A DNA stretch of 64,000 nt, from positions 31,269 to 95,268 of the IMG/VR virus record IMGVR_UViG_3300003873_000004. One strand, written 5' to 3'. The translations under genes were made by a program, and so were the position numbers. The notes beneath the pieces are model-generated. The model ran no database searches. It saw nothing but the letters and a program-made list of their open reading frames with translations, and was not told the DNA's origin. Every line of letters starts with the position of its first letter. Positions within the stretch are counted from its first letter, which is position 1. The DNA comes from a virus. Shown piece by piece: positions 2,525-60,909 of the stretch.

Positions 2525-3742
2525 TCAGATAAAATATACAAATTTATCTTTTCGGACAACAGGAACTATAGATGCCTGTTCAGAAGACAACCAATAGAAA
2601 CCAGTTCTATTTTGTTGTTTTCTACGAAGATCGGGCGCGATCGCCCGCAGTGGTGAAGCAATGTTTTTGGCTGCGTTCAAATCCGCGTCATCTAAATGAC
2701 CGCATTTGTCGCACTCAAAAACTTTTCCTTTTCGGTTTGCTTTCTTCGTCCAACCGCATCCAGAACATCTTTGGCTTGTGTAAGTTGGGTTGATGTGCGT
2801 CACTAGAACGTCTAGTTCTTCACATCGAGCCTCGATCTTGTCAAAAATCTCTGGATATGTAAAATGAGAAAGGAATCTGGAACTTGTTTTTCCTTTCCTC
2901 ATGTCTTTTATGTTTTCTATCTTTAGCTCTTTACAACTGGACAGGTTTAGCCGGTTGATCGCCCAATTGATGTAGTTTGTTCTATGTTCTTGAGTCCTTC
3001 TAAATGCCTTCGAACCCTTTCTCTTTCTGGATAAGGTTTTCATGATTGAATCGAGATCGTGACCGTGGCGGTCGATCTTCGAAACTTGATTGTCTGAACA
3101 AGAAATGAGAGTCTTTGCTCCAATGTCGATGCCTAGAGTTTCTGTTCCTACATTTTGTCTTGGTTCTATTTCGAACAACATAGTAATTTCCTTTTCGTTC
3201 AGTCTAATAGATTTTTTTAGCTCACCTCTTGTCAGCAAATTATTAAAATGTCTGTGCCGTTTGAAAGGCAATTCAATTTTTATTTTACTTCCTATTGATC
3301 GTAGAGTTATGTATCCGTCAAACGAAGTTTTGTTTTCTTGATCAATATGAACAAACCTAGAATCTAATTCCAAGTTTATCTTATCTAAAATTGGCTTAGA
3401 TGGTGTATTGCGATCATAAACTTTTCTTAACTTGTTTGCTTTTTCGATGTTGCCTGATATTTCTAACTTATTAATCATCCATAAACGTTTCTTTTGCTTG
3501 GCTTTTGTTCCTTTAATGATGCCGATGGCCTGTTTTGTAGCACACTGTATCATTCTGGCAGAAAGCCAAGAAGTTATATTGTCAGTGAAGTCTCTCGTTG
3601 CGAACTTAGGGAGGGTTTCGTACCCCCAATAGAAGTCAATTGTTTTCTTCATAACATTTCTATATTCACAAACGATTGAAGACACCGTTTGTTTCTTCGA
3701 TTTGTTTGTGAATTTAAGAGAAACTTTAGAAGATTTAATCAT
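2525..3742 (-). CDS. tnpB: TnpB RNA-guided endonuclease
   Basis: RuvC motifs GIDIG, IENI, DADLNAA all intact; zinc finger CSGC...CDKC. Confidence 0.93.
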   Translation of the reverse strand: MIKSSKVSLKFTNKSKKQTVSSIVCEYRNVMKKTIDFYWGYETLPKFATRDFTDNITSWLSARMIQCATKQAIGIIKGTKAKQKKRLWMINKLEISGNIEKANKLRKVYDRNTPSKPILDKINLELDSRFVHIDQENKTSFDGYITLRSIGSKIKIELPFKRHRHFNNLLTRGELKKSIRLNEKEITMLFEIEPRQNVGTETLGIDIGAKTLISCSDNQVSKIDRHGHDLDSIMKTLSRKRKGSKAFRRTQEHRTNYINWAINRLNLSSCKELKIENIKDMRKGKTSSRFLSHFTYPEIFDKIEARCEELDVLVTHINPTYTSQRCSGCGWTKKANRKGKVFECDKCGHLDDADLNAAKNIASPLRAIAPDLRRKQQNRTGFYWLSSEQASIVPVVRKDKFVYFI

Positions 3743-4304
3743 TGTTCAATTCGTCAACGATTTTCGCCGTCTTTCTTTTTGATCTGCGTTTGCCATAGAT
3801 TCTCGCACAGAACGAAGTTATTATAGAAACTAAATCTTCTACGATTTCTTTTTCCTCTTGTGTTCTGTTCACAACAACGATTTCACCGGCAAATAAAGTT
3901 TCTATATAATTAAATCCAAATCGTGTCAGTCTATCCTTATGCTCGACAACAATTCTCCCTATTGTTGGGTCAGACAAAAGAGAAATCAGTTTTGGTCTAT
4001 TGTCATTTAACCCAGAAGCACATTCTTTCGTCACGATATTGACTACCCAGCCATTAGAACAACAAAAATCTTCTAGACGTTTTGCTTGGCTGTCCAAATT
4101 ATTGCGATTTTGAGAAGAACTAACTCGCGCGTAAATAGCAGTACGAACATCTGTCTCGACTTCGCTGTCAACTTCAATTAGAATTGTACCCGACGGCAAT
4201 TGTACATAATTATCAGGAAAATCCCCACGTTTCAACAATTGATAAGCTCCAGTGTATGTGTAGCCGTTTTCTTTTGCCCATTTTGACAGTTTAATTCGTT
4301 TCAT
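3735..4304 (-). CDS. tnpA: IS607 serine transposase
   Basis: N-terminal HTH, then YARVSS...ASG...VVEHKDRLTRFG...FCARIYG. Confidence 0.95.
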   Translation of the reverse strand: MKRIKLSKWAKENGYTYTGAYQLLKRGDFPDNYVQLPSGTILIEVDSEVETDVRTAIYARVSSSQNRNNLDSQAKRLEDFCCSNGWVVNIVTKECASGLNDNRPKLISLLSDPTIGRIVVEHKDRLTRFGFNYIETLFAGEIVVVNRTQEEKEIVEDLVSIITSFCARIYGKRRSKRKTAKIVDELNND

Positions 4305-4404
4305 ATATCTATTTAGTATTATATGTTTTTACACATTTATGGCGATTGTACATTATACTTAATCGAAAAGGCATAAAAATCTTTTTATCGAAAATTGAAA
4401 GAAA

Positions 4405-4920
4405 TCTCTTGACTTCTTGTTTCGAAACTGCTAGAATGCTTCGAGTACATTAAGTAGACATAGAGATTGATAGAAAAGATCAATAAAAGAAATAGATAAC
4501 TGCGCGGTTGCGTAGCAACCGTAGCTTCCGTAGCGCAGCGAAGGAAACAATTCAGCGCTGTTAGATACATTTGGCGTAGCCAGAGTTGCTCAAGAGGTTT
4601 TAGACTTTGGTTTTATTCAGCGTCATTAGATCACGGTAAACGTGATTAGCGCAGTTGGACTGCTAGTTAGGACACCTGTGCACTTCGAACAAGGATCTGG
4701 ACAGTATCTTGACAACTCTAAACTACGCCTTCGGCACTTCGAGCTTCGCTCTCCGAACGTGTTATTTTCTTCATTGTATAGTGTAGAACAATCATTAACA
4801 ACATCTGGACAACAGTCAACAACATTAGACTTTTCCTTCGCTGCGCTACGGAAGCTACGCCTTCGGCTTCGCAAATATGGATTATTTCTCTTGACAAGAT
4901 CATCAATATGGTGTAGACTT
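4405..4920. repeat. large intergenic quasi-palindromic element, copy 1
   Basis: Shared with 59343-59745; 66-bp identical core at 4647-4712; inverted repeat 4520-4547 / 4832-4859; TTGACT-N17-TAGAAT at 4409-4437. Confidence 0.9.
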
Positions 4921-4926
4921 ACGTCA

Positions 4927-6132
4927 ATGAATAATAAACCGACTTTAGATCAACAGAAGATTATAGACAAGATTATAGACAAGACTCTATCTGGTCATCA
5001 TTGTTGTCTAGATGCTCCGGCGGGAACAGGTAAAACATTTATTCTTGAATTTCTTGTTGATGAACTTCGACACAACGGTAAAACTGTTCATCTGTGTTCT
5101 ACAACTCATAAGTCTGTTGCTGTTCTCGAAAATAATTCGTTCGAAGAAGTTTCTACAATCCATTCGTTACTTGGTATGAAACCACAAATCGACTATAGAA
5201 CGGGTAAAGAAAAATATGTCATTGATAGAGACGTGCCTCGTAAAGTCAAGAAAGGTGAAGTAGTCATTTGTGATGAAGCATCGATGATCAATAATGAAAT
5301 GCTTGGTCTTATAGCAGAAGTGGTAAAAGAATTGAATGTTGTGTTTATATTTGTTGGTGACTCGTATCAATTACCTCCAGTCGGCGAGGAAAGGTCTAAT
5401 GCTTTATTCATGCCAAATAAATTCACTCTGGACAAGATTGTTCGTCACACTAATTCTATTGTAGATTGTTCAGTCAAAATGCGGGAATATATAGAAGATG
5501 GATATGTTCCATCAATTAGAGATTTTGATGAATTTCCTGATATAGAAGTTTTGAACAACACTAATTTTGATAAAATGTTTTTCGACAAGGTTAAAACTGG
5601 TCAATCTGTTCTTTTCGTAGCATGGACTAATAATAGAGTGGATTGTCAAGCAGCAGACGTTAGAAATTTCTTAGGATATTCACCGACGTCATTTGAACGT
5701 GGTGAAACTTTGATTCTAAATGCTCCATTGATCAAGAAGCGTTCGATTGTTGCTGGAAACAATTCTATTCATGTGGTAGATAAAGTTTCATCAAAAGAAA
5801 TAGGCGGAATAGACTTCTGTGCTATTACAACACAAGATGGTTTGAAATTCAACACAAAGATTGACTATAGTGATGTGAAAAATAGATTAGATGAAATGAC
5901 AAGAGTGGCAACTTTTGATGGTACTTCGAAAGGCTGGAGAGCTTATTACAGATTTAAGGAATCAAGCGTTCCCGTTTCTTTTCATCATTCTGTGACTGTT
6001 CACAAATCACAGGGAAGCACAGTTGATGAAGTGTTTATCGACTTTAGAGATATTATTCGATCTGATATTGCTTCTAAATTATTATACGTGGCTATTACAC
6101 GGGCGGCAAAAAGAGTTTATCTGTTAAATTGA
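4927..6132 (+). CDS. dda: Dda-like SF1B helicase
   Basis: APAGTGKT, ICDEASM, GDSYQLPPV, TVHKSQGST, YVAITRA; likely start ATG 4927 just after a promoter. Confidence 0.9.
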   Translation: MNNKPTLDQQKIIDKIIDKTLSGHHCCLDAPAGTGKTFILEFLVDELRHNGKTVHLCSTTHKSVAVLENNSFEEVSTIHSLLGMKPQIDYRTGKEKYVIDRDVPRKVKKGEVVICDEASMINNEMLGLIAEVVKELNVVFIFVGDSYQLPPVGEERSNALFMPNKFTLDKIVRHTNSIVDCSVKMREYIEDGYVPSIRDFDEFPDIEVLNNTNFDKMFFDKVKTGQSVLFVAWTNNRVDCQAADVRNFLGYSPTSFERGETLILNAPLIKKRSIVAGNNSIHVVDKVSSKEIGGIDFCAITTQDGLKFNTKIDYSDVKNRLDEMTRVATFDGTSKGWRAYYRFKESSVPVSFHHSVTVHKSQGSTVDEVFIDFRDIIRSDIASKLLYVAITRAAKRVYLLN

Positions 6133-6134
6133 TT

Positions 6135-6263
6135 CTAAGCCATTTTAGTTTCTTTCTAGTATGTTGGTATCAAAAAGAAATTCAAATTGTTTCTAGACAC
6201 ACTCTAGGGGCTAGAATTGTATTAAATAAAGTTCTTGACAAGTACAAAATAATAGTGTAGCAT
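6135..6263 (+). repeat. ~125-bp promoter-bearing dispersed repeat, copy A (others 20789-20912, 24737-24865, 49908-50036, diverged 59755-59879)
   Basis: Shared ...tatcaaaaagaaattcaaat.gtttctagaca..ctctaggggctagaa...aaagttcTTGACAagtaca...TAGCAT. Confidence 0.9.
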
Positions 6264-7920: not shown

Positions 7921-9642
7921 TTGCTAATCATCAAAAGCGTAGAATATCGTAATTTTCTGTCTACTGGTAATGTGCCTATTAAATTGAATTTTGACAGTCG
8001 ATGTACTGGAATCACTGGAAAAAATGGGCATGGCAAGTCGACATTTAATTCTGCCTTGTTCTTCGCTATGTTCGGCAAGACCCTTCGAAAATTGAAGAAA
8101 GAACAGATTGTTAATTCTATCAACAAGAAAGACTTGCTTGTCACACTAGAACTTCGAGACGGCAAGAAAAACTATAAGATCGTTCGTGGTATCAAGCCAA
8201 ACATTTTTGAAATTTATGTCGATGGTATTTTGAGAGAACCCCCAGCGTCAATCAAAGATTATCAAAACTGGCTTGAAAATTCTGTTCTAAAAATGAATGA
8301 AGCTGTAGCAAAGCAATTGATGCTTCTAAACTCGACTTCCTTTATCCCGTTCATGATGTTGCCAGCGAAACAACGTAGAACTGTAGTAGAAGAAATTCTC
8401 GACATTCAAGTTTTCACCACAATTTCAACACTGATTCGTGGTAGATCAACCATTCTTAGCACGCAATATAACGATCTGATTTCAGAAATATCGTTGTTGA
8501 AAAACTCTATCAAGCTAAAACAAGAGCATTTAGCTGACATTAGCGTGAAGAAAGAGACACTAATCAAAGAAAAGCAAGAAAGAATTGTAAGTTTGAAGAC
8601 TGATATTACACGGATTGAATCTGGTATCATAGCAGCAACCGACGAAATCGCATTGAACAATGAGAAAATTTCTGATGCTGCGGCAAAAAGACAAAATAGG
8701 TCAGAACTAGACAAAATCATGACGGAAATTTCAGCAAAGAAATATCGTCTTGAAAAACATACAAAATTCGTACAGAATAATTCGTCTTGCCCTACATGTC
8801 AGCAGGAAATAGACGACAACTTTCGAGCAAATACAGTGAAGGAATCGGCGGAAGAATCAAAATCCCTAGAGACTGCCATAGACAAAGCAACAGAAATGCT
8901 TGACGAATTTGACAGTAGATTAGATGAAATAACAGCAATAGAAAAAAATATACTCAATTTGAACATTGATATTTCAAATAGTCATACCAGAATAGATGCT
9001 ATCGCTGAAAATATACGCGTGATAGAACTCGATTTACGAAATATGTCATCGTCTAATGATGAAAATGATGAATCTATTTTATCTGATATACAAAAAATTG
9101 AAGATCAATTGACGAAAACAAAATTAGAACGGGATGAATTGGTAGATAATACACAATATCTTAGAACTATAAATTCGTTGCTGAAAGATTCTGGCATCAA
9201 GACCAAAATAATCAAGCAGTATTTACCAACGATCAATTCGCTGATTCGCAAGTATCTTGAGATATTAGAGTTCCCTTGTGAGTTTACATTTGACGAAGAG
9301 TTCAACGAGACAATGAAATCACGGTATAGAGACGTATTTTCATATGATAATTTCTCTGCGGGGCAGCGCTGCCGTATAGATTTGGCCTTAATGTTCGCAT
9401 GGCGTGATTTATCAAGGCTTAGAAATTCATCAGCGTGTAATCTTCTTGTGCTAGATGAAATTGGGTCGTCTTCATTAGACGACAATGGTGTGGCCGCGTT
9501 TATGAAAATAGTTGGAAATTTGGATAAAACCAATGTGATTGTTATTTCTCATGATCAAAATATATTCGATTCCGACGCCTTCGACAAGCATCTTACTTTC
9601 AAATTGCAAAATAATTTCACCATTGTCGAAGAAACCTCTTGA
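7921..9642 (+). CDS. 46: recombination ATPase gp46 (Rad50/SbcC-like)
   Basis: GKNGHGKST, CPTC zinc hook, FSAGQ, LDE, ISH. Confidence 0.95.
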   Translation: MLIIKSVEYRNFLSTGNVPIKLNFDSRCTGITGKNGHGKSTFNSALFFAMFGKTLRKLKKEQIVNSINKKDLLVTLELRDGKKNYKIVRGIKPNIFEIYVDGILREPPASIKDYQNWLENSVLKMNEAVAKQLMLLNSTSFIPFMMLPAKQRRTVVEEILDIQVFTTISTLIRGRSTILSTQYNDLISEISLLKNSIKLKQEHLADISVKKETLIKEKQERIVSLKTDITRIESGIIAATDEIALNNEKISDAAAKRQNRSELDKIMTEISAKKYRLEKHTKFVQNNSSCPTCQQEIDDNFRANTVKESAEESKSLETAIDKATEMLDEFDSRLDEITAIEKNILNLNIDISNSHTRIDAIAENIRVIELDLRNMSSSNDENDESILSDIQKIEDQLTKTKLERDELVDNTQYLRTINSLLKDSGIKTKIIKQYLPTINSLIRKYLEILEFPCEFTFDEEFNETMKSRYRDVFSYDNFSAGQRCRIDLALMFAWRDLSRLRNSSACNLLVLDEIGSSSLDDNGVAAFMKIVGNLDKTNVIVISHDQNIFDSDAFDKHLTFKLQNNFTIVEETS

Positions 9643-10001: not shown

Positions 10002-12125
10002 ATGAAAAAGAAAACTGAATTGCTGGCTAAAATGATGGCCGCAGAAGATATTAACGTCATCTTCTCAAATGCTAAAACCGCCAGTTTCAATCCCGTATCC
10101 AGAACATTAGCAATGCCAACATTTGTAGAAGACTCACCAGAGTGTGTACGATTTGGTTTCGTAGCACATGAAATTTCGCATGCTATTCACACACCAGCGG
10201 TAGAAAAAGTTACCCCGATTCTGAACATTGTCGAAGATATACGCATTGAGAAGTTGATCAAGCGTAAATTTCGCGGTTCTGCCAATTACATTTCAAAAAT
10301 GTATGAATACTTATGGAGCGAAAACTTTTTTGGTTGTAATGAAGATGGAATCAACACCAAGAATTTTCTAGATCGCTTGAATGTTTATGCTAAGACCAAA
10401 GATTCTAAAAACGCTCCTAGTGTTCATTTTTCTGATGAAGAACAAAAGTTGGTTGATCGTTCTTTCCTTACGACGTCATTTGAAGATGTGCTGTCACTAT
10501 GTGAAGAAATCAAAGAGTTCATGAAAAATCAACAGCAAAATGAAGAACCAGAAACTACAAAAGAAATTCGCCGCGATAGTGACGAATCAGAAGAACAGAA
10601 AGAAAGTCAAGTTGAAGAATCTGATGCTGACGAAGAAGAAACTGACGAAGAGTCAGAAGAAAGCGAAAAACAAGAGTCTGAAGTGGATGAAGAGGAATCC
10701 CAAGACGAATCAGAAGAACAGAAAGAAAGTCAAGTTGAAGAATCTGATGCTGACGAAGAAGAAACTGACGAAGAAGAAACTGACGAAGTCAAACCATCAG
10801 GTCAGCTTGACGGCGAGACGATTCAAGAAGAATTTGAGCCAGAATCAGAAACTCAAGATCAACTAGATAACGCTTTCAATGAAATGGTAGATAAAGAAAA
10901 GAAAAGTGAAGATGTTGCTATGGTTGGAAGTTTTCCAGAAGATTTGATCCACAAAGACGGGGTTATCGAATTTCTCGAGAAGAAAATGAAATATACAAAA
11001 GGCGGTATCACGTATGGTACTGGCATACATCGTCGATATGTCAGCAATGTGGTTTTGCTTCTTGATTCAGATGACAGAACTGCGAAATTTATCAATGATG
11101 CTAAGGCTCAGGTAGCTTTGCTTTGTAAACAATTCGACATGAAAAAACGGGCTTCTCTATTTTCGAAGAGTAAAATCGCATCTACTGGGGAACTTGATGT
11201 GAATTTGCTGTCAGAATATAAATTTAAAGATGACCTATTCTTGAAAGATGAAATCTTACCAAAAGGAAAGAATCATGGTTTGGTGCTGCTGATAGACTTT
11301 TCGTATTCAATGGAGAGCCGAATAGATGCCACGTGCAAACAAGCTGCTGTTTTGGCGCTGTTTGCTAGAAAGGCTAACATCCCATTGAAAATATATGGGT
11401 TTACGACAGCACGATGGCGTGGATTTGATGCCAAGAAATTTGATGTTTCTGAGCAGGAAATCAACATTGGCAAAGCTGTTATTTTTCAGATTATTGACAC
11501 ATCAATCAAAGTTTCAAAATCTGATTTTGTTCGCGTCATTAAATTGTTGACACATGCCCCGACATGGTTTTATGATATTTCTGGAATGACTCCAATGTCA
11601 ACTACAGCAATGGTGGTCAGCGATGACGTTATTCGCTGGAAATCAAAAAATCAAATCGAACGCGTTAGCACATTGTTTCTTACTGATGGTGCTTCACACT
11701 ATCCGGTTAAGAAAAACATTGATCCTAAAATAGACAAAGATTTTCTAGTTTTTTATGGAAAATTGTTTGACACTAAAACCAAAAAGAAGCACGAAAGTTC
11801 CGATATGAGGTCGGCTTATAAAATATACAAAGATCGTACACAATCATCAATTGGAACAATGTTTATCGCCACAAGAAAAGATTTTCGTTATATTGTTAAT
11901 GCCAAAGACTTTTCTGAATTGAAAGCAGAAGGTATTGTGAAAGTTGATTATATGAGCGACGTTGTTGATGCCTATTTTTACATGACTGACGAAGATCGGC
12001 TTTCCGATGTCGCTGACATGGAAATCGAAGAAGGAAAAGCTGCTGGTCGATCGTTCACAAAGAAAGCCCGCGCTAAAGCCAAGTCGATAGTGTTTGTTAC
12101 ATACTTTGCTGAACTGCTCGGATAG
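10002..12125 (+). CDS. CobT-like HExxH metallopeptidase + vWA protein
   Basis: HEISH, acidic linker, MIDAS DFSYS...T...TDG; adjacent to a MoxR/CobS ATPase. Confidence 0.8.
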   Translation: MKKKTELLAKMMAAEDINVIFSNAKTASFNPVSRTLAMPTFVEDSPECVRFGFVAHEISHAIHTPAVEKVTPILNIVEDIRIEKLIKRKFRGSANYISKMYEYLWSENFFGCNEDGINTKNFLDRLNVYAKTKDSKNAPSVHFSDEEQKLVDRSFLTTSFEDVLSLCEEIKEFMKNQQQNEEPETTKEIRRDSDESEEQKESQVEESDADEEETDEESEESEKQESEVDEEESQDESEEQKESQVEESDADEEETDEEETDEVKPSGQLDGETIQEEFEPESETQDQLDNAFNEMVDKEKKSEDVAMVGSFPEDLIHKDGVIEFLEKKMKYTKGGITYGTGIHRRYVSNVVLLLDSDDRTAKFINDAKAQVALLCKQFDMKKRASLFSKSKIASTGELDVNLLSEYKFKDDLFLKDEILPKGKNHGLVLLIDFSYSMESRIDATCKQAAVLALFARKANIPLKIYGFTTARWRGFDAKKFDVSEQEINIGKAVIFQIIDTSIKVSKSDFVRVIKLLTHAPTWFYDISGMTPMSTTAMVVSDDVIRWKSKNQIERVSTLFLTDGASHYPVKKNIDPKIDKDFLVFYGKLFDTKTKKKHESSDMRSAYKIYKDRTQSSIGTMFIATRKDFRYIVNAKDFSELKAEGIVKVDYMSDVVDAYFYMTDEDRLSDVADMEIEEGKAAGRSFTKKARAKAKSIVFVTYFAELLG
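10581..10774 (+). repeat. 71-bp in-frame direct repeat in the acidic linker
   Basis: 10581-10651 identical to 10704-10774. Confidence 0.9.
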
Positions 12126-19890: not shown

Positions 19891-20786
19891 GCAAAGAACA
19901 AGAGATTTTAGTGTTCGAAACATTCTATTCGTGTCAGGGGGAATCGCTACGAGTAGGAGTACCGTCGATTTTCATTAGAGTGTTTGGCTGTTCTGCCTCT
20001 TGTCCTGGATTTGGTCAGCCAAAAGGGAAACTAATTCCAATCGAAGAAATGCCGCACAATACTTTCGATGCCTCTAAGATCACTAGAGTTGATCAATTAC
20101 CTGTTTCGAATATTGGATGTGATTCGGCGGCAGCATGGTCGAAGAAATATCGACACTTGGCTAAGAAATATACAGTAGATTCACTGATAGAACATATCGA
20201 ATCACTTGTTCCTAAATATGCGTACGAACGTCCAGATATTGTTATTACTGGTGGGGAACCGCTTCTACCAAAATTTCAGAAGTTCTGGGTAGAGTTTCTG
20301 AAAAAAACTCCAAATTTTTCTGAGATTACGTTTGAAACCAACGGCACGCAAAGGCTATCTACAGATTTGTTCGAAGCTATTACCAACGGAAATATCAGAT
20401 TCACGTTTTCGGTTTCACCAAAGCTGGAAATTAGTGGAGAACCACAGAGCAAGATGTTGAAACCAGAAGCAGTCACATCATACAGGATGCTATATGCTTT
20501 TGATTGGTCTGAAACTGGACATAATGTTTATCTAAAATTCGTAATTCGAGATAACGATGATGTGGAAGAAGTTTATCATTTTATCAACGAATACCAGAAA
20601 GATTACAAGGAAGAATTGTCACTCAAAACATGTGAGAAGCCTACCGTTTATCTCATGCCAGAAGGCGCCACAATAGAAGGGCTAAAGTTGACAGAAACAC
20701 AGGTGGCCAATATCGCGCTCGAAAATGGTTTCCGATATAGCCCAAGACTTCACTGCTCTTTGTTTGGCAATTCATGGGGCACGTAG
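19887..20786 (+). CDS. queE: 7-carboxy-7-deazaguanine synthase (radical SAM)
   Basis: FYSCQGE...FIR..GC...C...GCDS, TGGEP, ETNG, SPK, RLH. Confidence 0.92.
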   Translation: MSKEQEILVFETFYSCQGESLRVGVPSIFIRVFGCSASCPGFGQPKGKLIPIEEMPHNTFDASKITRVDQLPVSNIGCDSAAAWSKKYRHLAKKYTVDSLIEHIESLVPKYAYERPDIVITGGEPLLPKFQKFWVEFLKKTPNFSEITFETNGTQRLSTDLFEAITNGNIRFTFSVSPKLEISGEPQSKMLKPEAVTSYRMLYAFDWSETGHNVYLKFVIRDNDDVEEVYHFINEYQKDYKEELSLKTCEKPTVYLMPEGATIEGLKLTETQVANIALENGFRYSPRLHCSLFGNSWGT

Positions 20787-20939
20787 AGACATTTTACTCT
20801 TGATTTGATACCAGTATATCAAAAAGAAATTCAAATCGTTTCTAGACACACTCTAGGGGCTAGAAACACATTAAATAAAGTTCTTGACAAGTACAGATTA
20901 AGAGTGTAGCATCAATAGATCAAATTCGAGAGGTAATCC

Positions 20940-24412: not shown

Positions 24413-24740
24413 TTGTCCAGTAGAAGATTATACTCCAGATGCTTGGAAAATTATGAAAATATCAGGCGACAACGGGCCCGCATATAAAGTTTTGTCTGGA
24501 TGGAATAGCGGTTATTTGACCACTGATGGCTGGCGTCTTAATAGTGGTATAGAAAAGGTCGAAGAATCCGGCGAGTTTTATTATATCACTGGCAGAAGTG
24601 GGTCTATCATAAAGGCTAACAAGAAAGCGGAAGGCTTTATTTCGGCTAATCGAAGTATTTTTGATAAGCTAAAAGAGCAGGAAACAGAATCTCTGAAAAT
24701 TGAAACAATTGATATGAAAGATTATTTGAATCAATCCTAA
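24405..24740 (+). CDS. conserved phage hypothetical protein
   Basis: YKVLSGW..GY...WRLNSGI pattern. Confidence 0.7.
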   Translation: MYSCPVEDYTPDAWKIMKISGDNGPAYKVLSGWNSGYLTTDGWRLNSGIEKVEESGEFYYITGRSGSIIKANKKAEGFISANRSIFDKLKEQETESLKIETIDMKDYLNQS

Positions 24741-24836
24741 GCCACTTTACTCTTGATTTGATAGCAGTATATCAAAAAGAAATTCAAATCGTTTCTAGAC
24801 ACTCTCTAGGGGCTAGAATATCAGTAAAGAAAGTTC

Positions 24837-25832
24837 TTGACAAGTACAGGACGGGAGTGTATCGTATTGACAAAATTACAACCATTTAGTAGCGCGATTG
24901 CGGAGATACAATTTGGCAGTCATCTCTACAAATTAAACACAGAAAACTCTGATCGAGATTATGCTGGAATTTATCTTCCTACGATCGATGATATTTTACT
25001 CGAAAATGTAACAACGGTTATCGACATAAGTGACAATAAGAAAACAAAGAACGGCCCAGAAGATATTGATCGAAAGTTTTATTCGCTTCGAAAGTTTATG
25101 TCACTGGCAGCAAAAGGCGATACCAATGTGATGGACATGCTTCATTGCTCGGATTCGGATATTCTAACCACATCTGATATTTTTGACACACTTCGAGCAA
25201 ATCGTTCAAAATGTTATACGAAAAACTGCTCGTCGATGGTTGGATATGTGAAAGCACAAGCCAATAAGTATGGCGTAAAGGGTTCCAGATTATCAGCAGT
25301 AAACAAAGCCTTGAAAATGTGCGAGGCAATACGCGACAAATCACAGACCCTTTCTGACTACTGGGATTTTATTCCTGTATCAGAATTTTCTAAGTTGATC
25401 AGCACAGATACAGAAAACTCGGGCGTTCAAAGATTCTATGAAGTATGTGGTAGAAAATATCAGGATTGTTTGACGTTTGAAGAGTTTGAAGAAAATATGA
25501 CTGCTTTGAAATCGAAATATGGAAGTCGGGCGGAGAAAGCAGAATCTAATGATGGTGTAGATTTCAAAGCGATTTCACATGCTCTACGCGTAGGATATCA
25601 GACACAGGACATATTAACCAAAGGAACATATGGTTTCCCTCTTGATCAAACAGAATATATCAAAAAAGTAAAAGCAGGTGAAGTAAACATTGGCGATGTT
25701 CGACAAGTCTTAGAAGATTTGGTGAAAAATATCAAAGTACAGATTGAGGAATCAGATTTGCCAGAAGAACCAGACACAAAGTTCTGGGACGATTTGTATT
25801 TGAAAATTTGTAGAGATCATTACTCAATATGA
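24837..25832 (+). CDS. Pol-beta-type nucleotidyltransferase (NrdC.11-like); start uncertain
   Basis: FGSHLY..NTENSDRD; K..SHALR. Confidence 0.85.
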   Translation: MTSTGRECIVLTKLQPFSSAIAEIQFGSHLYKLNTENSDRDYAGIYLPTIDDILLENVTTVIDISDNKKTKNGPEDIDRKFYSLRKFMSLAAKGDTNVMDMLHCSDSDILTTSDIFDTLRANRSKCYTKNCSSMVGYVKAQANKYGVKGSRLSAVNKALKMCEAIRDKSQTLSDYWDFIPVSEFSKLISTDTENSGVQRFYEVCGRKYQDCLTFEEFEENMTALKSKYGSRAEKAESNDGVDFKAISHALRVGYQTQDILTKGTYGFPLDQTEYIKKVKAGEVNIGDVRQVLEDLVKNIKVQIEESDLPEEPDTKFWDDLYLKICRDHYSI

Positions 25833-26096: not shown

Positions 26097-26433
26097 ATGC
26101 GCACATTAGACATAGAAAGACTACACAAAGTTCATTTTAATGTACTTAACGGGAAATTGTATCGCGGACAAGGAACAACAACATATCAGTTGGTTTGCCT
26201 TGCTCAAAGTTTAGAATTTGTAGATATGTTTCGTTATAAAAGATCACAATTCTACACTATATTTAATTCCGATGCTGTTTGATATTCTCAAACTATTCGG
26301 ATACGTTCGCTTTCGAAAAACATATGCCGATGAAGTGATAATCAACGATACAAAAAGAATTCGTTTTATTCCTGTGTGTCAACCAAACAGATTACGTGGT
26401 CTAAAGACAGAAATAATTGAAGAACTAAGATAA
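26097..26433 (+). pseudogene. frameshifted hypothetical gene
   Basis: ORF stops at 26282 but another frame continues ...FDILKLFGYV...NRLRGLKTEIIEELR* to 26433. Confidence 0.55.
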
Positions 26434-26500
26434 TTCTTGACAAGAGCAAAGAAATAGTTTAGACTTATTGTATTGAAAGAGGAATAGAGAGGAAATAATA

Positions 26501-30076: not shown

Positions 30077-31413
30077 ATGACATTAGAAAAACTAAAACAG
30101 CAGGAGCAGGATTTGACATCGAAGATTTCAAGTCTTAATAATGCTCAAATGGCTAGAAAAATCCTTTAATTTTGGAGGCTTTGGTCGGGAACGACCATTG
30201 TACATCGTGTGAATTGCTGGAAAGCTAAGTCGAAAGATATGCCAATCAGCAGCCAAGCCCACATAGGGAAGGTTCAGAGACTATCCGTAAGGAGTAGGAA
30301 TCAAGTGGTTCCGAAGCGCACGACAACCAGAACGGTTGATGATATAGTCCGATCTTGCGCGAAAGCGTAAGCTGCGAAAGCGAGGCAATAGTAACGTCAT
30401 TGTCTGAACATGTGCTAAATTCCTGTTTTGGTGCCCTAGCATCAAAATATTATAGATATAACAATTCATATATTGCTGAGTCCATAACTACGGCGGGACA
30501 AGTTGGTATCCAGTGGACAATGAGAAAAACAAATGAATATTTGAACCTTATTCTAAAAACTGACGATGTGGATTATACCGTCGGGGCAGACACAGATTCC
30601 GAATATGTTGAATTAAATCAGCTAGTTATGAGATATTTCAAAGATAAGCCAAACGCGACAGATCACGACAAAGTTGAATTTCTTGATCTGTTCTGTAAGA
30701 CCCAGCTCGACCCCGCGATTCAAAAGTCTTGTATTGAGATGAAAGATTATATGAACGCAAGATTAAACAAGCTAGATATGGAAAGAGAAGCCATATCTTC
30801 ACGTGGTTTTTTCACCGCGAAAAAACGGTACGCTCTACTGGTACATGACATGGAAGGCGTCCGCTACGCCAAACCAAAACTAAAAATCATGGGATTAGAA
30901 ACTCAGAAATCTTCTACACCAAAACCATGTAGAGATTTGCTAAAAGATATGATCATGGTAATGTTGACCAAAGGGGAAACAGAAACCCAAGAGTTCATCG
31001 AGAATGCCCATGATGATTTTATTGCTCTTGACATTGGTGAATATGCCGTCCCGCGTGGTATCAATGGTCTAGAAAAATATTGTATCGAAAATGGCAAAGC
31101 TATCAATGGTACACCAGCGCACGCTAAAGCAGCTTTAGTTTACAATATGATGATCAAACGAAAGAATTTACCGCTTGACCCAATCAAATCTGGGGACAAG
31201 TTGAAATATGTTCCACTGAAAGAACCAAATCCTTGTGGATTTCCAATTGTTGGATTCCCGTCACATCTAGGATTGCCAAAAGAATTTGGATTAGATGAAT
31301 ATGTGGACGTAGAAACTGTGTATTATAAAGCATTTTTGAAGCCGGCAGAAGCCATGCTTGGTGCTGTCGGATGGAATGTAGAGAAAACATCTAGTCTGGA
31401 GGACTTTTTCTGA
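30077..31413 (+). CDS. 43: DNA polymerase B C-part (43B), spliced 30077-30166 + 30415-31413
   Basis: Own promoter and GGAGG; spliced motif B RKIL|LNSCFGAL; DTDS; KKRY; KIMGLE..KSSTP. Confidence 0.9.
30167..30414 (+). ncRNA. group I intron (248 nt, no ORF)
   Basis: P AATTGCTGGAAA, Q AATCAGCAG, R TTCAGAGACTA, S GATATAGTCC; exon ends in U pairing with GAGG; terminal G; removal restores the frame. Confidence 0.93.
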
Positions 31414-31637
31414 TGAAAGAAGTCGATTACTCAAAAGAAGTAGCCAAAATTAACAGTAATTTGAAGATTCTGTCGATGACAAATCATTTTGCTGATCGAT
31501 ATGTGCATATGGTTCAGAGTGGATATGATAGAGCAGATACCGCCGAAGCCATTTTAACAATGGTAATTGACACGCTGGATGAACTTGAAGAAGAAAATTT
31601 GAAATATGAACAAGAATCTAAGTTTGGTTGGGATTAA
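31413..31637 (+). CDS. hypothetical protein
   Basis: TGATG overlap with 43B. Confidence 0.65.
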   Translation: MKEVDYSKEVAKINSNLKILSMTNHFADRYVHMVQSGYDRADTAEAILTMVIDTLDELEEENLKYEQESKFGWD

Positions 31638-31699
31638 CACTTGACAAGAGCAAAGAAATAGTTTAGACTTATTGTATTGAAAGAGAAATTGAGGATATT

Positions 31700-38240: not shown

Positions 38241-38598
38241 GGGGGTGACTTAGATTCGACCGAGATCAAGATGTTTTAGTAAGCACACAGGAATAGATGG
38301 CGCCTTAATGCCAACAAAGCTCTTAACTGCAGCGAACGCCTCAAATATTTTGCGGGCAGCCGCTTAATCATTTCTGATAGTAATGCCAGTCGTGCTATCT
38401 CATGAAATGTCAAATTTAGACTGGCTAAGTTGATGACGTTTTTTCAAGTCATCGAACGAAAAACATAGAAATGATACGCCATGATCGATTTTGATATATT
38501 TCAGATTGTGGTCAAAGGTTATAAAATATGTCTAAGTGTGTAGAAAGCTTTAATTGACGATGCTCGATACAGGGGTGCAAATCCCCTCACCTTCACCA
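38241..38598 (+). ncRNA. ssrA: tmRNA, tag (A)AANASNILRAAA at 38329-38367
   Basis: 5' GGGGGTGAC..GATTCGAC; 3' AGGGGTGCAAATCCCCTCACCTTCACCA; TAACT before GCA resume codon; tag ends AAA-stop. Confidence 0.9.
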
Positions 38599-41133: not shown

Positions 41134-41835
41134 CAAAAGAACCAACAACGAAGGAGAAATGAACATGGCGGATGCATCGGGTGCTCCATCAGAACTATTT
41201 TTAGTTGTAAGCAGTAGAGCGACATTGTTCCCTGGCACTATTGGGATCCACACTTACAAAAATTCACGCATTAAAAATGTCAACTGAATCTAATATTAGA
41301 TATTTCGTCTATTCAACAAAAATGCTGGCAGTCGCAACCAATCATCCTTCAACACTAGAAAATATCGCTTGACAAGAGCGTCAAAATAGTTTAGACTTAT
41401 TGTATTGAAAGGGAAAGAAGCGTTCAAAGAACAAGCTTCAACGGTTAGACAAACTAATCACTGGTGAAAGGCCAGGAAACAAAGTGCTTGACAAGATCAA
41501 AGAAATAGTTTAGACTTATTGTATTGAAAGAAGTTAAGGAGATTATATTATGAAAAAATTATCAACAACAAAAAGAATCAAGTGTGAAAATTGTGGGGCG
41601 TTCATTCGTGAAAATCTGATGCCGAAACATAAGTGTAAAGTTTGGCGCGAAAAAGAGCTGGACAAAATCGTAGAACGCATGGAGAAGAAATGAGTCACGA
41701 TTCATGTAAACTTTGTGGATGGGTGGAACCAGAGAACGGTAAAGCTGTGACACGTCGATGCGATCGAGAAGGTTGTCCACAGAAGAAAGAATACCCATTA
41801 ATGAACTGGCTTAAGAAAGCTTTTGTGGAGAAAAG

Positions 41836-48604: not shown

Positions 48605-49911
48605 ATGTTATCATTTAAGAAATTTATCACTACCAATCATCGTCGTGAAGGCGAAACCGAATTAGACGAAGGTGGAGCTATATGAAATTATATAATAAAA
48701 TGGATCTATAAAAAGTTTTCGGCCATTTGCAGAACGTAAAGGACGTTGATACTTTTCAATTTTCTGATTTAGAGACAATCATATCCAACGCCTTATCGGG
48801 CAAGTTGTTGAAAACAAAGGAAAAAAACGACGGCCAAAATTTATTGATCTCCTGGATTGATGGGGAGTTCCGCGCTGCCCGCAATGGTAGCCATATTAAA
48901 AACTTTGGTAAAAATTCTATGACAGTATCAGCAACCAAAAGTATGTTTGCTGGACGCGGAACTATAGAAACGGCATTTTCTGATGCTGTTGGTGATATAT
49001 CCAAAGCGATTTCTAATCTTACTGCTAAGCAACAGGAAAAGATTTTCATGAACGGCAAGAAATTCATGAGCGTAGAAGTACAACATTCTGCGAATCCTAA
49101 TGTTGTTCACTATGGAAACGATACAATTGTTCTACAAGGAACACTTGAATATGATGAAGCAGGGAAACCTATTTCTCAGTTTAATATAGAAGATGCTAGA
49201 ATTCTGTCTGGTATGTTACAACAAGTTAGAGCCACAGCACAGAATACGTTTGAAGTAAAAGCAATCAAACAATTAGCTTTGAAAAAATTACCAAACTTCG
49301 CACAATTGAAAAAGAAATTTACTTCCGATTTACGAAAGGTAAGATCACGTTATGGATTATCGAATTCCGCGACAATTTCTGAATATAAAGAATCATATTG
49401 GCGAGAACAGATTACTCGAAATCTTACTGGTCTGGAAAAAGATGTTGAAGAATTACTCATTAACAGATGGGCACATTTCATCAAGCGACCGTCAATTGTT
49501 CAGATTGCTAAGATGTCCAAGCTAGGATCAGACATTCGAGCAATGGATAAAAACCATACAAAATTGGCTAAGAATGCTGATCAACCAATTGAAGATATTT
49601 TTCTACAAGTTGGTGCTAGAGTGATGGAAGGGATGACAGAATTTATGTCAGTCAATCCAGAATTTTCATCTAGTGTCATGACTAAGAACTTGAAAGATGC
49701 TATTGCCAAGATCGAAGCATCTGGAAACGAAGCAGCAATTGCTAAACTTCGATCAGAGTTGGCGCGATTAGATAGGATTGGAATTGAGCGTATCGTTCCG
49801 TCGGAAGGGATCACTTTTTTCGTACGAAAGGGCGGCGAAGATATACTTTTGAAACTCACCGGCGCTTTCGCTCCACTGAACCAAATAAATTCCATCTTAT
49901 GGCAGCTCTAA
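48605..49911 (+). CDS. KxDG ligase-like nucleotidyltransferase protein, interrupted by a 38-nt insert
   Basis: MLSFKKF...LDEGGA | FGHL...KEKNDGQN...EGI....LLKLTG.FAP.NQ. Confidence 0.65.
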
Positions 49912-50042
49912 GCCATTTTAGTTTGTTTCCAGTATGTTGGTATCAAAAAGAAATTCAAATTGTTTCTAGACATACTCTAGGGGCTAGAATTGTATTAAAT
50001 AAAGTTCTTGACAAGTACAGATTAAGAGCGTAGCATTGAAAT

Positions 50043-59342: not shown

Positions 59343-59745
59343 TCTCTTGACTTCTTGTTTCGAAACTGCTAGAATGCTTCGAGTACATTAAGTAGACATA
59401 GAGATTGATAGAAACAAAGTTAAAAAGAAATAGATCGTTGCGAAGCCGAAGGCGTAGCTTCCGTAGCGCAGCGAAGGAGAAGTTTAGAGTTATTAGATAT
59501 ATTGGCGTAGCCAGAGTTGCTCGAGAGGTTTTAGACTTTGGTTGAATTAGATACGCTCTAGATCATATTGAATTGGTTTAGCGCAGTTGGACTGCTAGTT
59601 AGGACACCTGTGCACTTCGAACAAGGATCTGGACAGTATCTTGATGACGTTGAACTACGCCTTCGGCACTTCGAGCTTCGCTCTCCGAACGTGCTATTTC
59701 TTCATCAATATTTCTCTTGACAAGAACATCAAGATGATGTAAAAT
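59343..59745. repeat. large intergenic quasi-palindromic element, copy 2
   Basis: Matches 4405-4920; core at 59579-59644. Confidence 0.9.
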
Positions 59746-59886
59746 AGATTCTAACACCATTTTAATGGTTTAGACTACCATTGTATCAATTCTACATTCT
59801 AAAGCGTTTAAGACGTACTCTAGAGGCTAGAAACATATTAAACAAAGTTCTTGACAAGAGCAAACAACAAGTGTAGTCTCTAGACA

Positions 59887-60909
59887 ATGTTAAATGACCA
59901 AAAATACCTTGGAATGCTGTCTAGTAGACTTCGAAACTATTCAAAGAAAGACTCTAGACTGTATAACTTCTCGTGTCCGTTATGTGGAGATTCGACTTCC
60001 GACAAGAAGAAAGCTAGAGCGTATTGCATGCCAAAGAAGAAAGGAACAGGTCTATACTTCTTTTGTCACAAGTGTAACGAGGCCATGCCCTTCGGATTAT
60101 TACTCAAGAGAATAGATAATCTTCTCTACAAAGAATACCAAAAGGAACGAATTGGCTCCAGATATTCTAACAAGCCAAAAGAGATCGAAGTTCCGAAATT
60201 CAACAACATGAAAAAGACATTAGAAGTAGTTTCATCAAACTCTAGCGTTTTTGATGATCTTCAAGATATGTCAAAGATGCCAAGAAAGGTTGCTGAATAT
60301 TTGATCAACCGTAAAATACCTCTAGACAAACTCTGGAAGTATTTCTACTATGCTGATGATTTCAAAAAAGTAGCTAATCAAATCTGTGCTGGAACCTTTT
60401 CTAAAGCTGCGCTAAAATATAAAGAATCCAGAATTGTGTTGACAATGTTAGACTCTTCTGCTAGAATTACTGGAATACAAGGTAGAACAATTGGAGAATC
60501 GTCTGCTAAATATATCACTATCAAACGCAGTGAATCAGCAAGAAAGATTTTTGGCTTAGACCAAATAAAATATAATCGGCCTGTCATAGTATTAGAAGGC
60601 CCGATCGACTCTTGTTTTCTTGATAATGCGATAGGTGTTTGTGGTGCTGATTTAGTTAGTCAAGTGGAAGGGTTAAATATCAATCCAATTTTCTGTTTTG
60701 ACAATGAACCATATTCGAAGATTATCACAAAGAAAGTATATCGAGCGATACAGCAAAATTATTATGTGGTTATCTACCCAAGAAACATAAAGCAGAAAGA
60801 CATAAACGAAATGGTCTTATCTGGCATAGATGTGTCTGATATGATAAAAAAACGAACATTCTCTGGTCTTAGAGCCAGGGCAGAATTTGCACAATGGAAG
60901 AGGACATGA
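59887..60909 (+). CDS. 61: DNA primase gp61
   Basis: CPLCGDS...CHKC zinc finger, QGR, EGPIDS, FDNE, KDINE. Confidence 0.95.
   Translation: MLNDQKYLGMLSSRLRNYSKKDSRLYNFSCPLCGDSTSDKKKARAYCMPKKKGTGLYFFCHKCNEAMPFGLLLKRIDNLLYKEYQKERIGSRYSNKPKEIEVPKFNNMKKTLEVVSSNSSVFDDLQDMSKMPRKVAEYLINRKIPLDKLWKYFYYADDFKKVANQICAGTFSKAALKYKESRIVLTMLDSSARITGIQGRTIGESSAKYITIKRSESARKIFGLDQIKYNRPVIVLEGPIDSCFLDNAIGVCGADLVSQVEGLNINPIFCFDNEPYSKIITKKVYRAIQQNYYVVIYPRNIKQKDINEMVLSGIDVSDMIKKRTFSGLRARAEFAQWKRT

Follow-up and report, generated by a model that had tools for sequence, protein, structure and literature searches.

A duplicated non-coding cassette with strand-polarised C-GNA-G mini-hairpins beside the replication genes of a T4-like virus: candidate replication origin or RNA gene

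To our knowledge, T4 itself is the only T4-type phage whose replication origins have been established by experiment; these are without a shared sequence signature, so that origins are unrecognisable in thousands of uncultured relatives. The T4 origins oriF and oriG minimally comprise a promoter and an A+T-rich DNA unwinding element where the RNA enters an R-loop; oriE relies on an early promoter, and all three are located at points of transcriptional divergence (PMC3016281). Here we have analysed a 64,000-nt stretch of viral DNA, hereafter the window, which corresponds to bases 31269-95268 of the 95,268-bp IMG/VR record IMGVR_UViG_3300003873_000004 (CheckV completeness ~52%). It contains two paralogous copies of a non-coding cassette of ~370 nt, at 4405-4790 (with a scar extending to 4885) and at 59343-59712, close to the genes of a Dda-like helicase and a gp61-like primase, respectively. 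The cassette combines an early-type promoter and a purine-rich leader with two inverted arrays of C-GNA-G mini-hairpins. The element is real, conserved, unusual and non-coding, and it may be either a promoter-primed origin with hairpin arrays resembling the ssi signals of RSF1010 or a new phage non-coding RNA (ncRNA).

The cassette resembles T4 oriF (uvsY) and oriG (34) in that a promoter is followed by an A+T-rich unwinding element at a divergence point (PMC3016281), and the phage encodes a T4-type replication set of Dda, gp61-like primase, gp41-like helicase and UvsY. It differs in that oriF and oriG use a MotA-dependent middle-mode promoter whose transcript also serves as mRNA, whereas the cassette has an early sigma70-type promoter, a non-coding and apparently terminated transcript, and mini-hairpin arrays that are absent from T4 origins. 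Since its promoter (P1) has a canonical -35 hexamer, TTGACT or TTGACA, at 17-nt spacing, typical of the early class, and is not of the MotA type, the cassette is not a strict member of the oriF/oriG group. Dependence on an early promoter, as in oriE, is possible; oriE, however, has evenly spaced direct-repeat iterons of unknown role, and the cassette has irregularly spaced 5-nt motifs in two inverted arrays.

Mini-hairpins of the C-GNA-G type are used in the oric of G4, in ssiA (CCGAAGG) and ssiB on opposite strands of RSF1010, and in the hairpin promoters of N4 (PMC13037366). The cassette shares with ssiA and ssiB the hairpin signals on opposite strands in inverted orientation, and the CCGAAGG of ssiA also occurs in its arms (PMC13037366); in both geometries synthesis would proceed outward from each arm. 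The RSF1010 signals are single hairpins of ~40 nt that act with the RepB' primase and depend on iterons for opening, whereas the cassette has many small hairpins and is accompanied by a primase of the DnaG/gp61 type; no RepB'- or RepC-like gene was noted near the element in this record, which covers ~52% of the genome. With the complementary-strand origin of G4 (St-1, alpha3) and the virion RNA polymerase promoters of N4 the cassette has in common GCGNAGC or GCGNNAGC mini-hairpins placed on one specific strand (PMC13037366). Those are, in contrast, single sites in single-stranded DNA phages or in a podovirus with its own RNA polymerase, and here the arrays are paired and belong to a T4-like genome.

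In ColE1, an untranslated structured RNA of several hundred nt, RNA II, primes replication, and hairpins of the displaced strand recruit the primosome. The cassette is similar in its predicted promoter-driven, structured and untranslated RNA and in its putative displaced-strand hairpins; it is different in that it has no sequence relation to ColE1, no antisense partner of the RNA I kind was seen, and the putative hybrid tract is located at the 5' side and not, as in ColE1, at the 3' side. T4-type phages also carry PeSL (promoter-early stem-loop) cassettes, which are repeated intergenic promoter/stem-loop modules, and ncRNAs without known function such as rnaC and rnaD of T4. The cassette is far longer than these, has its motifs arranged as a dyad and occurs in two copies only.

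If the cassettes are origins, they would represent a recognisable, motif-based origin type, would add a large double-stranded DNA phage to the long-known but mostly anecdotal cases in which GCGNAGC mini-hairpins accompany initiation sites (G4, RSF1010, N4), and would provide short DNA substrates on which the loading of helicase, primase and Dda could be tested strand by strand. If they are RNA genes, they would found a new, sizeable phage ncRNA family of unusual repeated-pentamer architecture, heading replication gene blocks. Either outcome is testable on synthetic DNA without a cultured phage.

Organization, polarity and conservation of the cassette

The two window copies and a single orthologue, found on a 7.1-kb IMG/VR contig (L089), share the same layout: an early sigma70-type promoter, the leader, a top-strand CGNAG array, an invariant hairpin, a variable middle, a bottom-strand CGNAG array, a hairpin with T-tract and, finally, the downstream gene's own promoter (P2). 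The features are as follows.

4409-4437, + strand: promoter P1 of the left copy, TTGACT-17-TAGAAT with TG extended -10
59347-59375, + strand: promoter P1 of the right copy, TTGACT-17-TAGAAT with TG extended -10
4444-4500, + strand: A+T-rich, purine-rich leader of the left copy (75% A+T, 72% purine), resembling a DNA unwinding element
59382-59436, + strand: A+T-rich, purine-rich leader of the right copy, assigned by composition
4500-4547, + strand: left-arm CGNAG array of the left copy, including CGGTTGC-GTA-GCAACCG at 4505-4521
59438-59478, + strand: left-arm CGNAG array of the right copy, with GC-GAA-GC, GCC-GAA-GGC, GC-GTA-GC and GC-GCA-GC
4571-4584 and 59502-59515, + strand: invariant 14-nt box TTGGCGTAGCCAGA (hairpin TGGC-GTA-GCCA), identical in both copies and in L089
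4585-4720, + strand: middle segment of the left copy, holding a 67-bp block and unalignable with L089
4723-4760, - strand: right-arm CGNAG array of the left copy, GCC-GAA-GGC and GAGC-GAA-GCTC in bottom-strand reading
59655-59692, - strand: right-arm CGNAG array of the right copy, pentamers on the bottom strand
4734-4775, + strand: imperfect hairpin and T-tract TTATTTTCTTCATT of the left copy, terminator-like (-7.3 kcal/mol as RNA)
59666-59705, + strand: hairpin and T-tract of the right copy (-9.8 kcal/mol as RNA)
4784-4801 (+ strand of the window), L089:2291-2308 and L089:2322-2339: 18-nt box TAGAACAATCATTAACAA, downstream of the T-tract
4818-4883, - strand: extra inverted partial left arm, in the left copy only, reverse complement of 59429-59494 (86% over 66 nt)
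4891-4919, + strand: promoter P2 of the left copy, TTGACA-17-TAGACT, promoter of the Dda-like helicase gene
59717-59745, + strand: promoter P2 of the right copy, TTGACA-17-TAAAAT, followed by a 130-nt cassette (59750-59879) and the primase gene

The density of CGNAG peaks window-wide exactly at the two cassettes (7 per 150 nt vs a background of ~0.5), the pentamers of the left halves being top-strand and those of the right halves bottom-strand. Clusters of three pentamers are found nowhere else in the record (17 overlapping matches vs 1 in the reversed control). When stems of at least 2 bp are considered, 18 of 18 C-GNA-G hairpins in the window copies obey the polarity, and so do 6 of 6 in the orthologue (five triloops and one GTAA tetraloop). 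The strand rule that the first-pass annotation of the window had drawn from the two copies, GNA triloops on the top strand to the left and on the bottom strand to the right, thus holds for all 24 hairpins. The record contains 46 hairpins of this type with G/C stems, 16 of them within the 0.9 kb of the cassettes.

The stems themselves vary. At ~+62 from the inferred P1 start, three hairpins differ (CGGTTGC-GTA-GCAACCG, GCC-GAA-GGC and GCCC-GCA-GGGC), and in the right arms, read on the top strand, the window copies have GCC-TTC-GGC and GAGC-TTC-GCTC and the orthologue GCAC-TAC-GTGC and GCGATTGC-TAC-GCAATCGC, so that the stems change from copy to copy and C-TNC-G on the top strand is kept. Since stems turn over at equivalent sites, the retained feature is the loop class (GNA closed by C-G) together with its strand. 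The stems are arm-specific, without a mirror in the opposite arm. An additional flanking pair is present in 50% of the pentamers in the cassettes vs 25% outside (Fisher p = 0.003, the copies not being independent). The CCGAAGG heptamer lies at 59446-59452 (top strand) and, in both right arms, on the bottom strand. Pentamers follow one another at irregular distances (5-10 nt) that vary by arm and copy, some pentamers being adjacent, and the other terminators of the phage have ordinary tetraloops and no C-GNA-G type loops.

P1 agrees with the sigma70 consensus at 10 of 12 positions in both window copies, as a consensus match only. The leader of 55-57 nt ranks in the top 1.6% of the 55-nt windows of the record by A+T content and in the top 0.015% by A+T content combined with strand skew. 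The entering promoter, exiting promoter and purine-rich tract claimed earlier are accordingly present, both promoters of each copy being on the + strand. No ORF (open reading frame) is conserved, and the lengths of the indels that separate the copies are not divisible by 3; one small ORF candidate with a TTG start runs for ~47 codons in the right copy, is cut short after 10 in the left one and is absent from L089.

In a BLAST search of the whole 95,268-bp record with 4405-4920, the one match apart from the query was 59343-59705 (85% over 370 nt, E 1.5e-115), so that the earlier description of a non-coding element occurring twice, at two points of divergence, is borne out with exactly one further copy. 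The homology begins at the promoter, ends at the T-tract and includes identical runs of 72, 67, 41, 26, 21 and 20 nt. One of these, 4646-4712 = 59578-59644 in the middle segment, is the identical core noted before, with a length of 67 bp and not 66 bp. Reverse-complemented, 4834-4874 is identical with 59438-59478 over all 41 positions, as annotated, and a perfect 28-bp inverted repeat links 4520-4547 with 4832-4859. In DNA contigs from two runs of one sample the repeats have doubled depth and the right copy maps onto the left one, which confirms two copies; the same contigs contain no alternative arrangement and no allele free of the neighbouring insertion sequence (IS).

In the orthologue the element lies between a leftward gp25-like baseplate gene and a rightward primase gene whose product is 84% identical. 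Its P1 reads TTGACA-17-TAGCAT; the -35, TGCTAG.AT and the next 25 nt, which cover the start region, are kept, and the leader is likewise A+T-rich and purine-rich. Then follow top-strand pentamers, TTGGCGTAGCCAGA, a middle of similar length, bottom-strand pentamers and a terminal hairpin with an 8-bp G/C-rich stem and a T-tract directly after it (-13.7 kcal/mol, z -4.0). All three copies retain the promoter, leader, pentamers, 14-nt box, a short GACGYTGAAC box and the T-tract; spacers, hairpin stems and the entire middle have diverged. That arrays and polarity are kept amid this divergence argues for selection on the hairpins. Since L089 does not conserve the 67-bp block, gene conversion accounts for the identity of this block in the window genome better than constraint does. 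The 18-nt box occurs once in the left copy, twice in the L089 tail and not in the right copy; it reads TAGAACA..CATTAACA and overlaps a weak leftward promoter-like site, TTGACT-17-AATGAT/C, kept in the left copy and L089.

Each of the three copies has a late-type promoter (CTAAATA-N4/5-ATG) directed leftward on one side and early replication genes directed rightward on the other. In both window copies the gene on the left side is transcribed leftward and headed by CTAAATA-N5-ATG, which by sequence reading is a T4-late-like promoter. The position between divergent gene blocks, claimed in the first-pass annotation, is correct for both copies as regards divergence, but the left neighbour is an IS607-like tnpA/tnpB pair and the right minus-strand block has only three genes. 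Similarly, the left copy is directly upstream of dda, and the right copy is separated from the primase gene by the 130-nt cassette at 59750-59879.

The count of copies in the genome and in relatives stands at two in the record and one orthologue. Four pattern scans of IMG/VR (core 25-mer; TCCGTAGC..TGGCGTAGCCAG; GTAGACA..TGGCGTAGCCA; leader pattern) found L089 alone, plus chance matches in coding DNA, among which the inspected contigs L135 and L136 had been picked up by TCCGTAGC..TGGCGTAGCCAG. Among JGI metagenome contigs a primase-based scan found no relative and a DNA-pattern scan gave 41 chance matches, none with the dyad. The dyad was absent from 1.69 Mb of loci, nearly all from other T4-like phages, in a motif-cluster scan and is therefore not a generic sequence habit. 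No match to the element was obtained by blastn against 50,697 cultured phage records, and none of the cultured phages is a close relative, since their Dda identity is <31% (best ~30%).

Replication origin and RNA gene as possible explanations

We put first, at a probability of roughly 0.4, the explanation that the cassette is an origin made of a promoter and an unwinding element, with single-strand hairpin signals on opposite strands. It takes this place because the design matches T4 origins, namely a promoter, a skewed A+T-rich tract and location at late/early divergence points beside replication genes, and because C-GNA-G mini-hairpins are known only as signals for strand-specific initiation on single-stranded DNA. 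In each cassette an early transcription unit, complete in itself, would be superimposed on a DNA element of dyad symmetry and would serve to start DNA replication in the T4 style. Host RNA polymerase would initiate at P1 and enter the 55-bp A+T-rich leader, where the purine-rich RNA would remain annealed as an R-loop and prime rightward leading-strand synthesis. In an R-loop from P1 the left-arm hairpins fall, by geometry, on the displaced top strand; once extruded there, the mini-hairpins, resistant to single-strand DNA-binding protein (SSB), would prevent the bubble from closing and flag the place at which the phage helicase-primase (gp41 and gp61 homologues, Dda) loads or primes. The bottom-strand array of the right arm would play the same role in the opposite direction. 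As the 3' ends of the hairpin-bearing strands point to the centre, primers made on either array would be extended outward.

The earlier proposal of a bidirectional origin or primase/helicase loading site is thereby matched in anatomy, both to T4 origins and to mini-hairpin signals, while the RNA-level evidence discussed below weighs against it. Several further observations also speak against an origin. P1 has no mirror-image leftward counterpart; half of the pentamers are without a flanking pair; and GC skew switches at both cassettes but tracks gene orientation and is thus confounded. As T4 origins have no sequence motif in common, a family signature for the cassette to match is lacking. In the 75 kb examined of L009/G001, the closest larger relative contig (Dda 56%), neither DNA resembling the cassette nor clusters of pentamers occur; a primase gene was not found in that part either. 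Nearest-neighbour DNA folding of the arms is unremarkable (z ~-0.6 to -1.9) and does not separate the strands, with the exception of the right arm of L089 (z ~-3.3 to -3.6); the stability of such mini-hairpins is missed by standard folding parameters (PMC13037366). Pfam searches of the record for gp59 and RNase H gave no match and, with the controls also silent, are uninformative.

A gene for a stable structured early ncRNA of ~320-345 nt, extending from P1 to the hairpin and U-tract, is also possible and comes close behind the origin, the two readings not being separable with three sequences. Such an RNA could sequester proteins as a sponge or decoy, could form a long imperfect duplex for RNase III to process, or could be a riboregulator of another kind, and the opposite-strand arrays would then simply face each other in an extended closing helix. 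In all three copies a hairpin and U-tract (-7.3, -9.8 and -13.7 kcal/mol) form the end, just before the next promoter, although the terminal stems of the window copies are bulged and a simple consensus terminator scanner flagged neither, that of L089 being canonical. Since the next gene has its own promoter right after the U-tract, P1 seems to serve only the ~330-nt non-coding stretch; a transcript is likely made from P1. The promoter-to-terminator layout is normal for an RNA gene and unnecessary for an origin.

Folding points the same way. Whole-transcript minimum free energy z-scores are -2.7, -3.6 and -4.6; the consensus structure has 88% of its cells paired, vs 35-43% with the partners slid, and the consensus fold is better in the top sense than in the bottom sense (-35.2 vs -22.3 kcal/mol). 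RNAalifold predicts long-range helices between columns 9-18/332-340, where the 5' leader pairs with the region preceding the U-tract, and between columns 111-128/277-295, a 17-bp helix that flanks the middle. In the covariation analysis 14 pairs change on both sides, which 0 of 500 shuffles match, and the 17-bp helix is retained through three compensatory pairs and several G-U pairs. Moreover, the pentamer order is the same on both arms of L089 (GTA, GCA, GAA, GTA, GAA), so that arm-to-arm pairing is possible, and the same phage carries other ncRNAs (tmRNA, group I intron). Structure and covariation were derived from three sequences, two of them paralogues, and the controls are biased since the consensus structure comes from these same sequences; the RNA-fold evidence is suggestive only. 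An earlier candidate of "swapped arms", based on short complementarity across copies (9/9, 7/7), gave way to the alignment-based helix 111-128/277-295, whose two sides belong to one and the same copy.

An RNA gene accounts less well for what is conserved. The conserved parts are the outer arms, and the middle including the 67-bp block is not kept in L089, the reverse of most structured RNAs; as the local stems are not mirrored, the loop polarity is not a simple consequence of arm-to-arm pairing; and for UNC triloops closed by C-G no special RNA role is known. Rfam 15 gave no match at the gathering score; relaxing the limit to E 10 added just one chance match, in antisense, to the model of a human long non-coding RNA (17.9 bits), and the record contains no antisense targets of the conserved boxes. 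ARAGORN and Rfam found nothing in the 67-bp core, for which a tRNA-like nature had been considered and which L089 does not conserve. The structured ncRNA, which the first-pass annotation had named as its alternative, has gained support from the hairpin and U-tract in all three copies, the better top-sense fold and the 17-bp helix, and yet it is ranked behind the origin.

A ColE1-like variant of the origin, in which a structured primer RNA is combined with displaced-strand hairpins, would reconcile the RNA- and DNA-level signals. The wider proposal that the cassette stands for an undescribed class of T4-like origin, having an early promoter, a terminated RNA II-like primer RNA, an R-loop in the leader and two C-GNA-G arrays as SSB-resistant initiation signals for a machinery of the gp41/gp61/Dda type, present twice in the genome and prone to recombination, is speculative and rather unlikely as a whole.

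Recombination and the history of the left copy

The cassettes could instead be a recombination-prone promoter/stem-loop/promoter module of PeSL type that is copied around the genome, with its function limited to promoter and terminator. Repeated promoter cassettes do abound in this genome (20 copies of a 59-nt module and five of a 130-nt cassette), long identical blocks between the copies suggest gene conversion, and the left copy bears an inverted fragment of a third arm and adjoins both the IS607-like element and a dda gene without the ~90-aa N-terminal domain of relatives. We consider this explanation improbable: there are only two copies, their boundaries are without terminal inverted repeats or target duplications, and it does not explain why the orthologue kept the arrays, polarity, 14-nt box and A+T-rich leader amid divergence. 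For the same reasons of copy number and boundaries the distribution is not that of a random miniature inverted-repeat transposable element (MITE), and hallmarks of MITEs or ISs were not found at the boundaries.

The rearrangements of the left copy nevertheless indicate that the cassette is recombinogenic. Dda proteins of relatives (P0002, P0004, P0005; 43-67% identity) have the extra ~90-aa N-terminal domain, which the window Dda is without and which is not encoded elsewhere in the 95-kb record; the cassette, the inverted arm fragment and the IS607-like element all sit on the N-terminal-domain side of dda. Because of this missing domain and the occupied flank, the left copy seems to have arisen secondarily, as a rearranged insertion of the element beside the primase gene.

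Least probable of all is that the CGNAG pentamers are duplex binding sites of a phage or host protein, forming two inverted arrays of operator, partition or iteron type that control the divergent late and early promoters: the motif is kept while spacers vary, the arrays are inverted, the palindromic box TGGC-N3-GCCA is invariant in all copies and T4 oriE likewise has iterons of unknown role, but irregular spacing (5-10 nt) and abutting pentamers agree poorly with phased protein binding, no candidate for the binding protein emerged, and the surplus of flanking complementarity points to hairpins over duplex sites.

Genome context and other repeated elements

The gene content of the window is T4-like and includes a Dda-like helicase, a gp55-like late sigma factor, SbcCD-like gp47/46, UvsY, a tail-tube protein, a gp61-like primase, NrdB and a gp41-like DnaB helicase (at ~46.9 kb). 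The leftward neighbour is tnpA of the IS607-like pair at the left locus and, at the right locus, a DUF7207 gene, the first of a three-gene minus-strand island. Rightward of the cassettes, early-type promoters and dda follow at the left locus, and a 130-nt repeated promoter cassette and then the primase gene at the right locus.

4927-6132, + strand: Dda-like helicase gene, right of the left cassette
59887-60909, + strand: gp61-like primase gene, matching PHROG 47 and 451
2525-4304, - strand: IS607-like pair, with serine-recombinase TnpA (189 aa, PF00239) and TnpB (405 aa, Cas12f1-like TNB domain)
59851-59879, + strand: third promoter of the right locus, inside the 130-nt repeated cassette

The 130-nt intergenic cassette occurs five times (6134-6263, 20783-20912, 24736-24865, 49907-50036 and 59750-59879), and a diverged copy lies upstream of the L089 primase gene. 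It ends in a promoter of a class of its own (TTGACAAGTACA...GTGTAGCAT); the TCTAGACACACTCTAGGGGCTAGAA box ahead of this promoter is nearly palindromic and a possible operator. A 59-nt module of early promoter and 5' leader, CTTGACAAGAGCA...AATAGTTTAGACTTATTGTATTGAAAGAG, is found at 20 window sites (e.g. 26431-26489, 31635-31693 and 41482-41540) and is conserved well past the -35 and -10 hexamers.

In Rfam searches the window has a tmRNA at 38241-38598 (81 bits) and an ORF-less group I intron at 30157-30371 (107 bits); it also has one tRNA. At the same late/early divergence point, upstream of dda, the relative L009 has a different non-coding stretch of 1.4 kb (L009:8243-9690), unlike the cassette, with three or four 25-nt direct repeats (8243-8344), an inverted repeat with 35-bp arms (8437-8547) and a 30-nt box present twice (9416/9554). 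In L089 an nrdB-like gene (3540-5937) is apparently interrupted, its 294-aa N-terminal part being followed by an HNH homing-endonuclease ORF (4496-5425). Finally, the window contains a perfect 71-nt tandem duplication, 10581-10651 = 10704-10774 (region 10581-10789), inside an acidic Glu/Asp-rich coding stretch.

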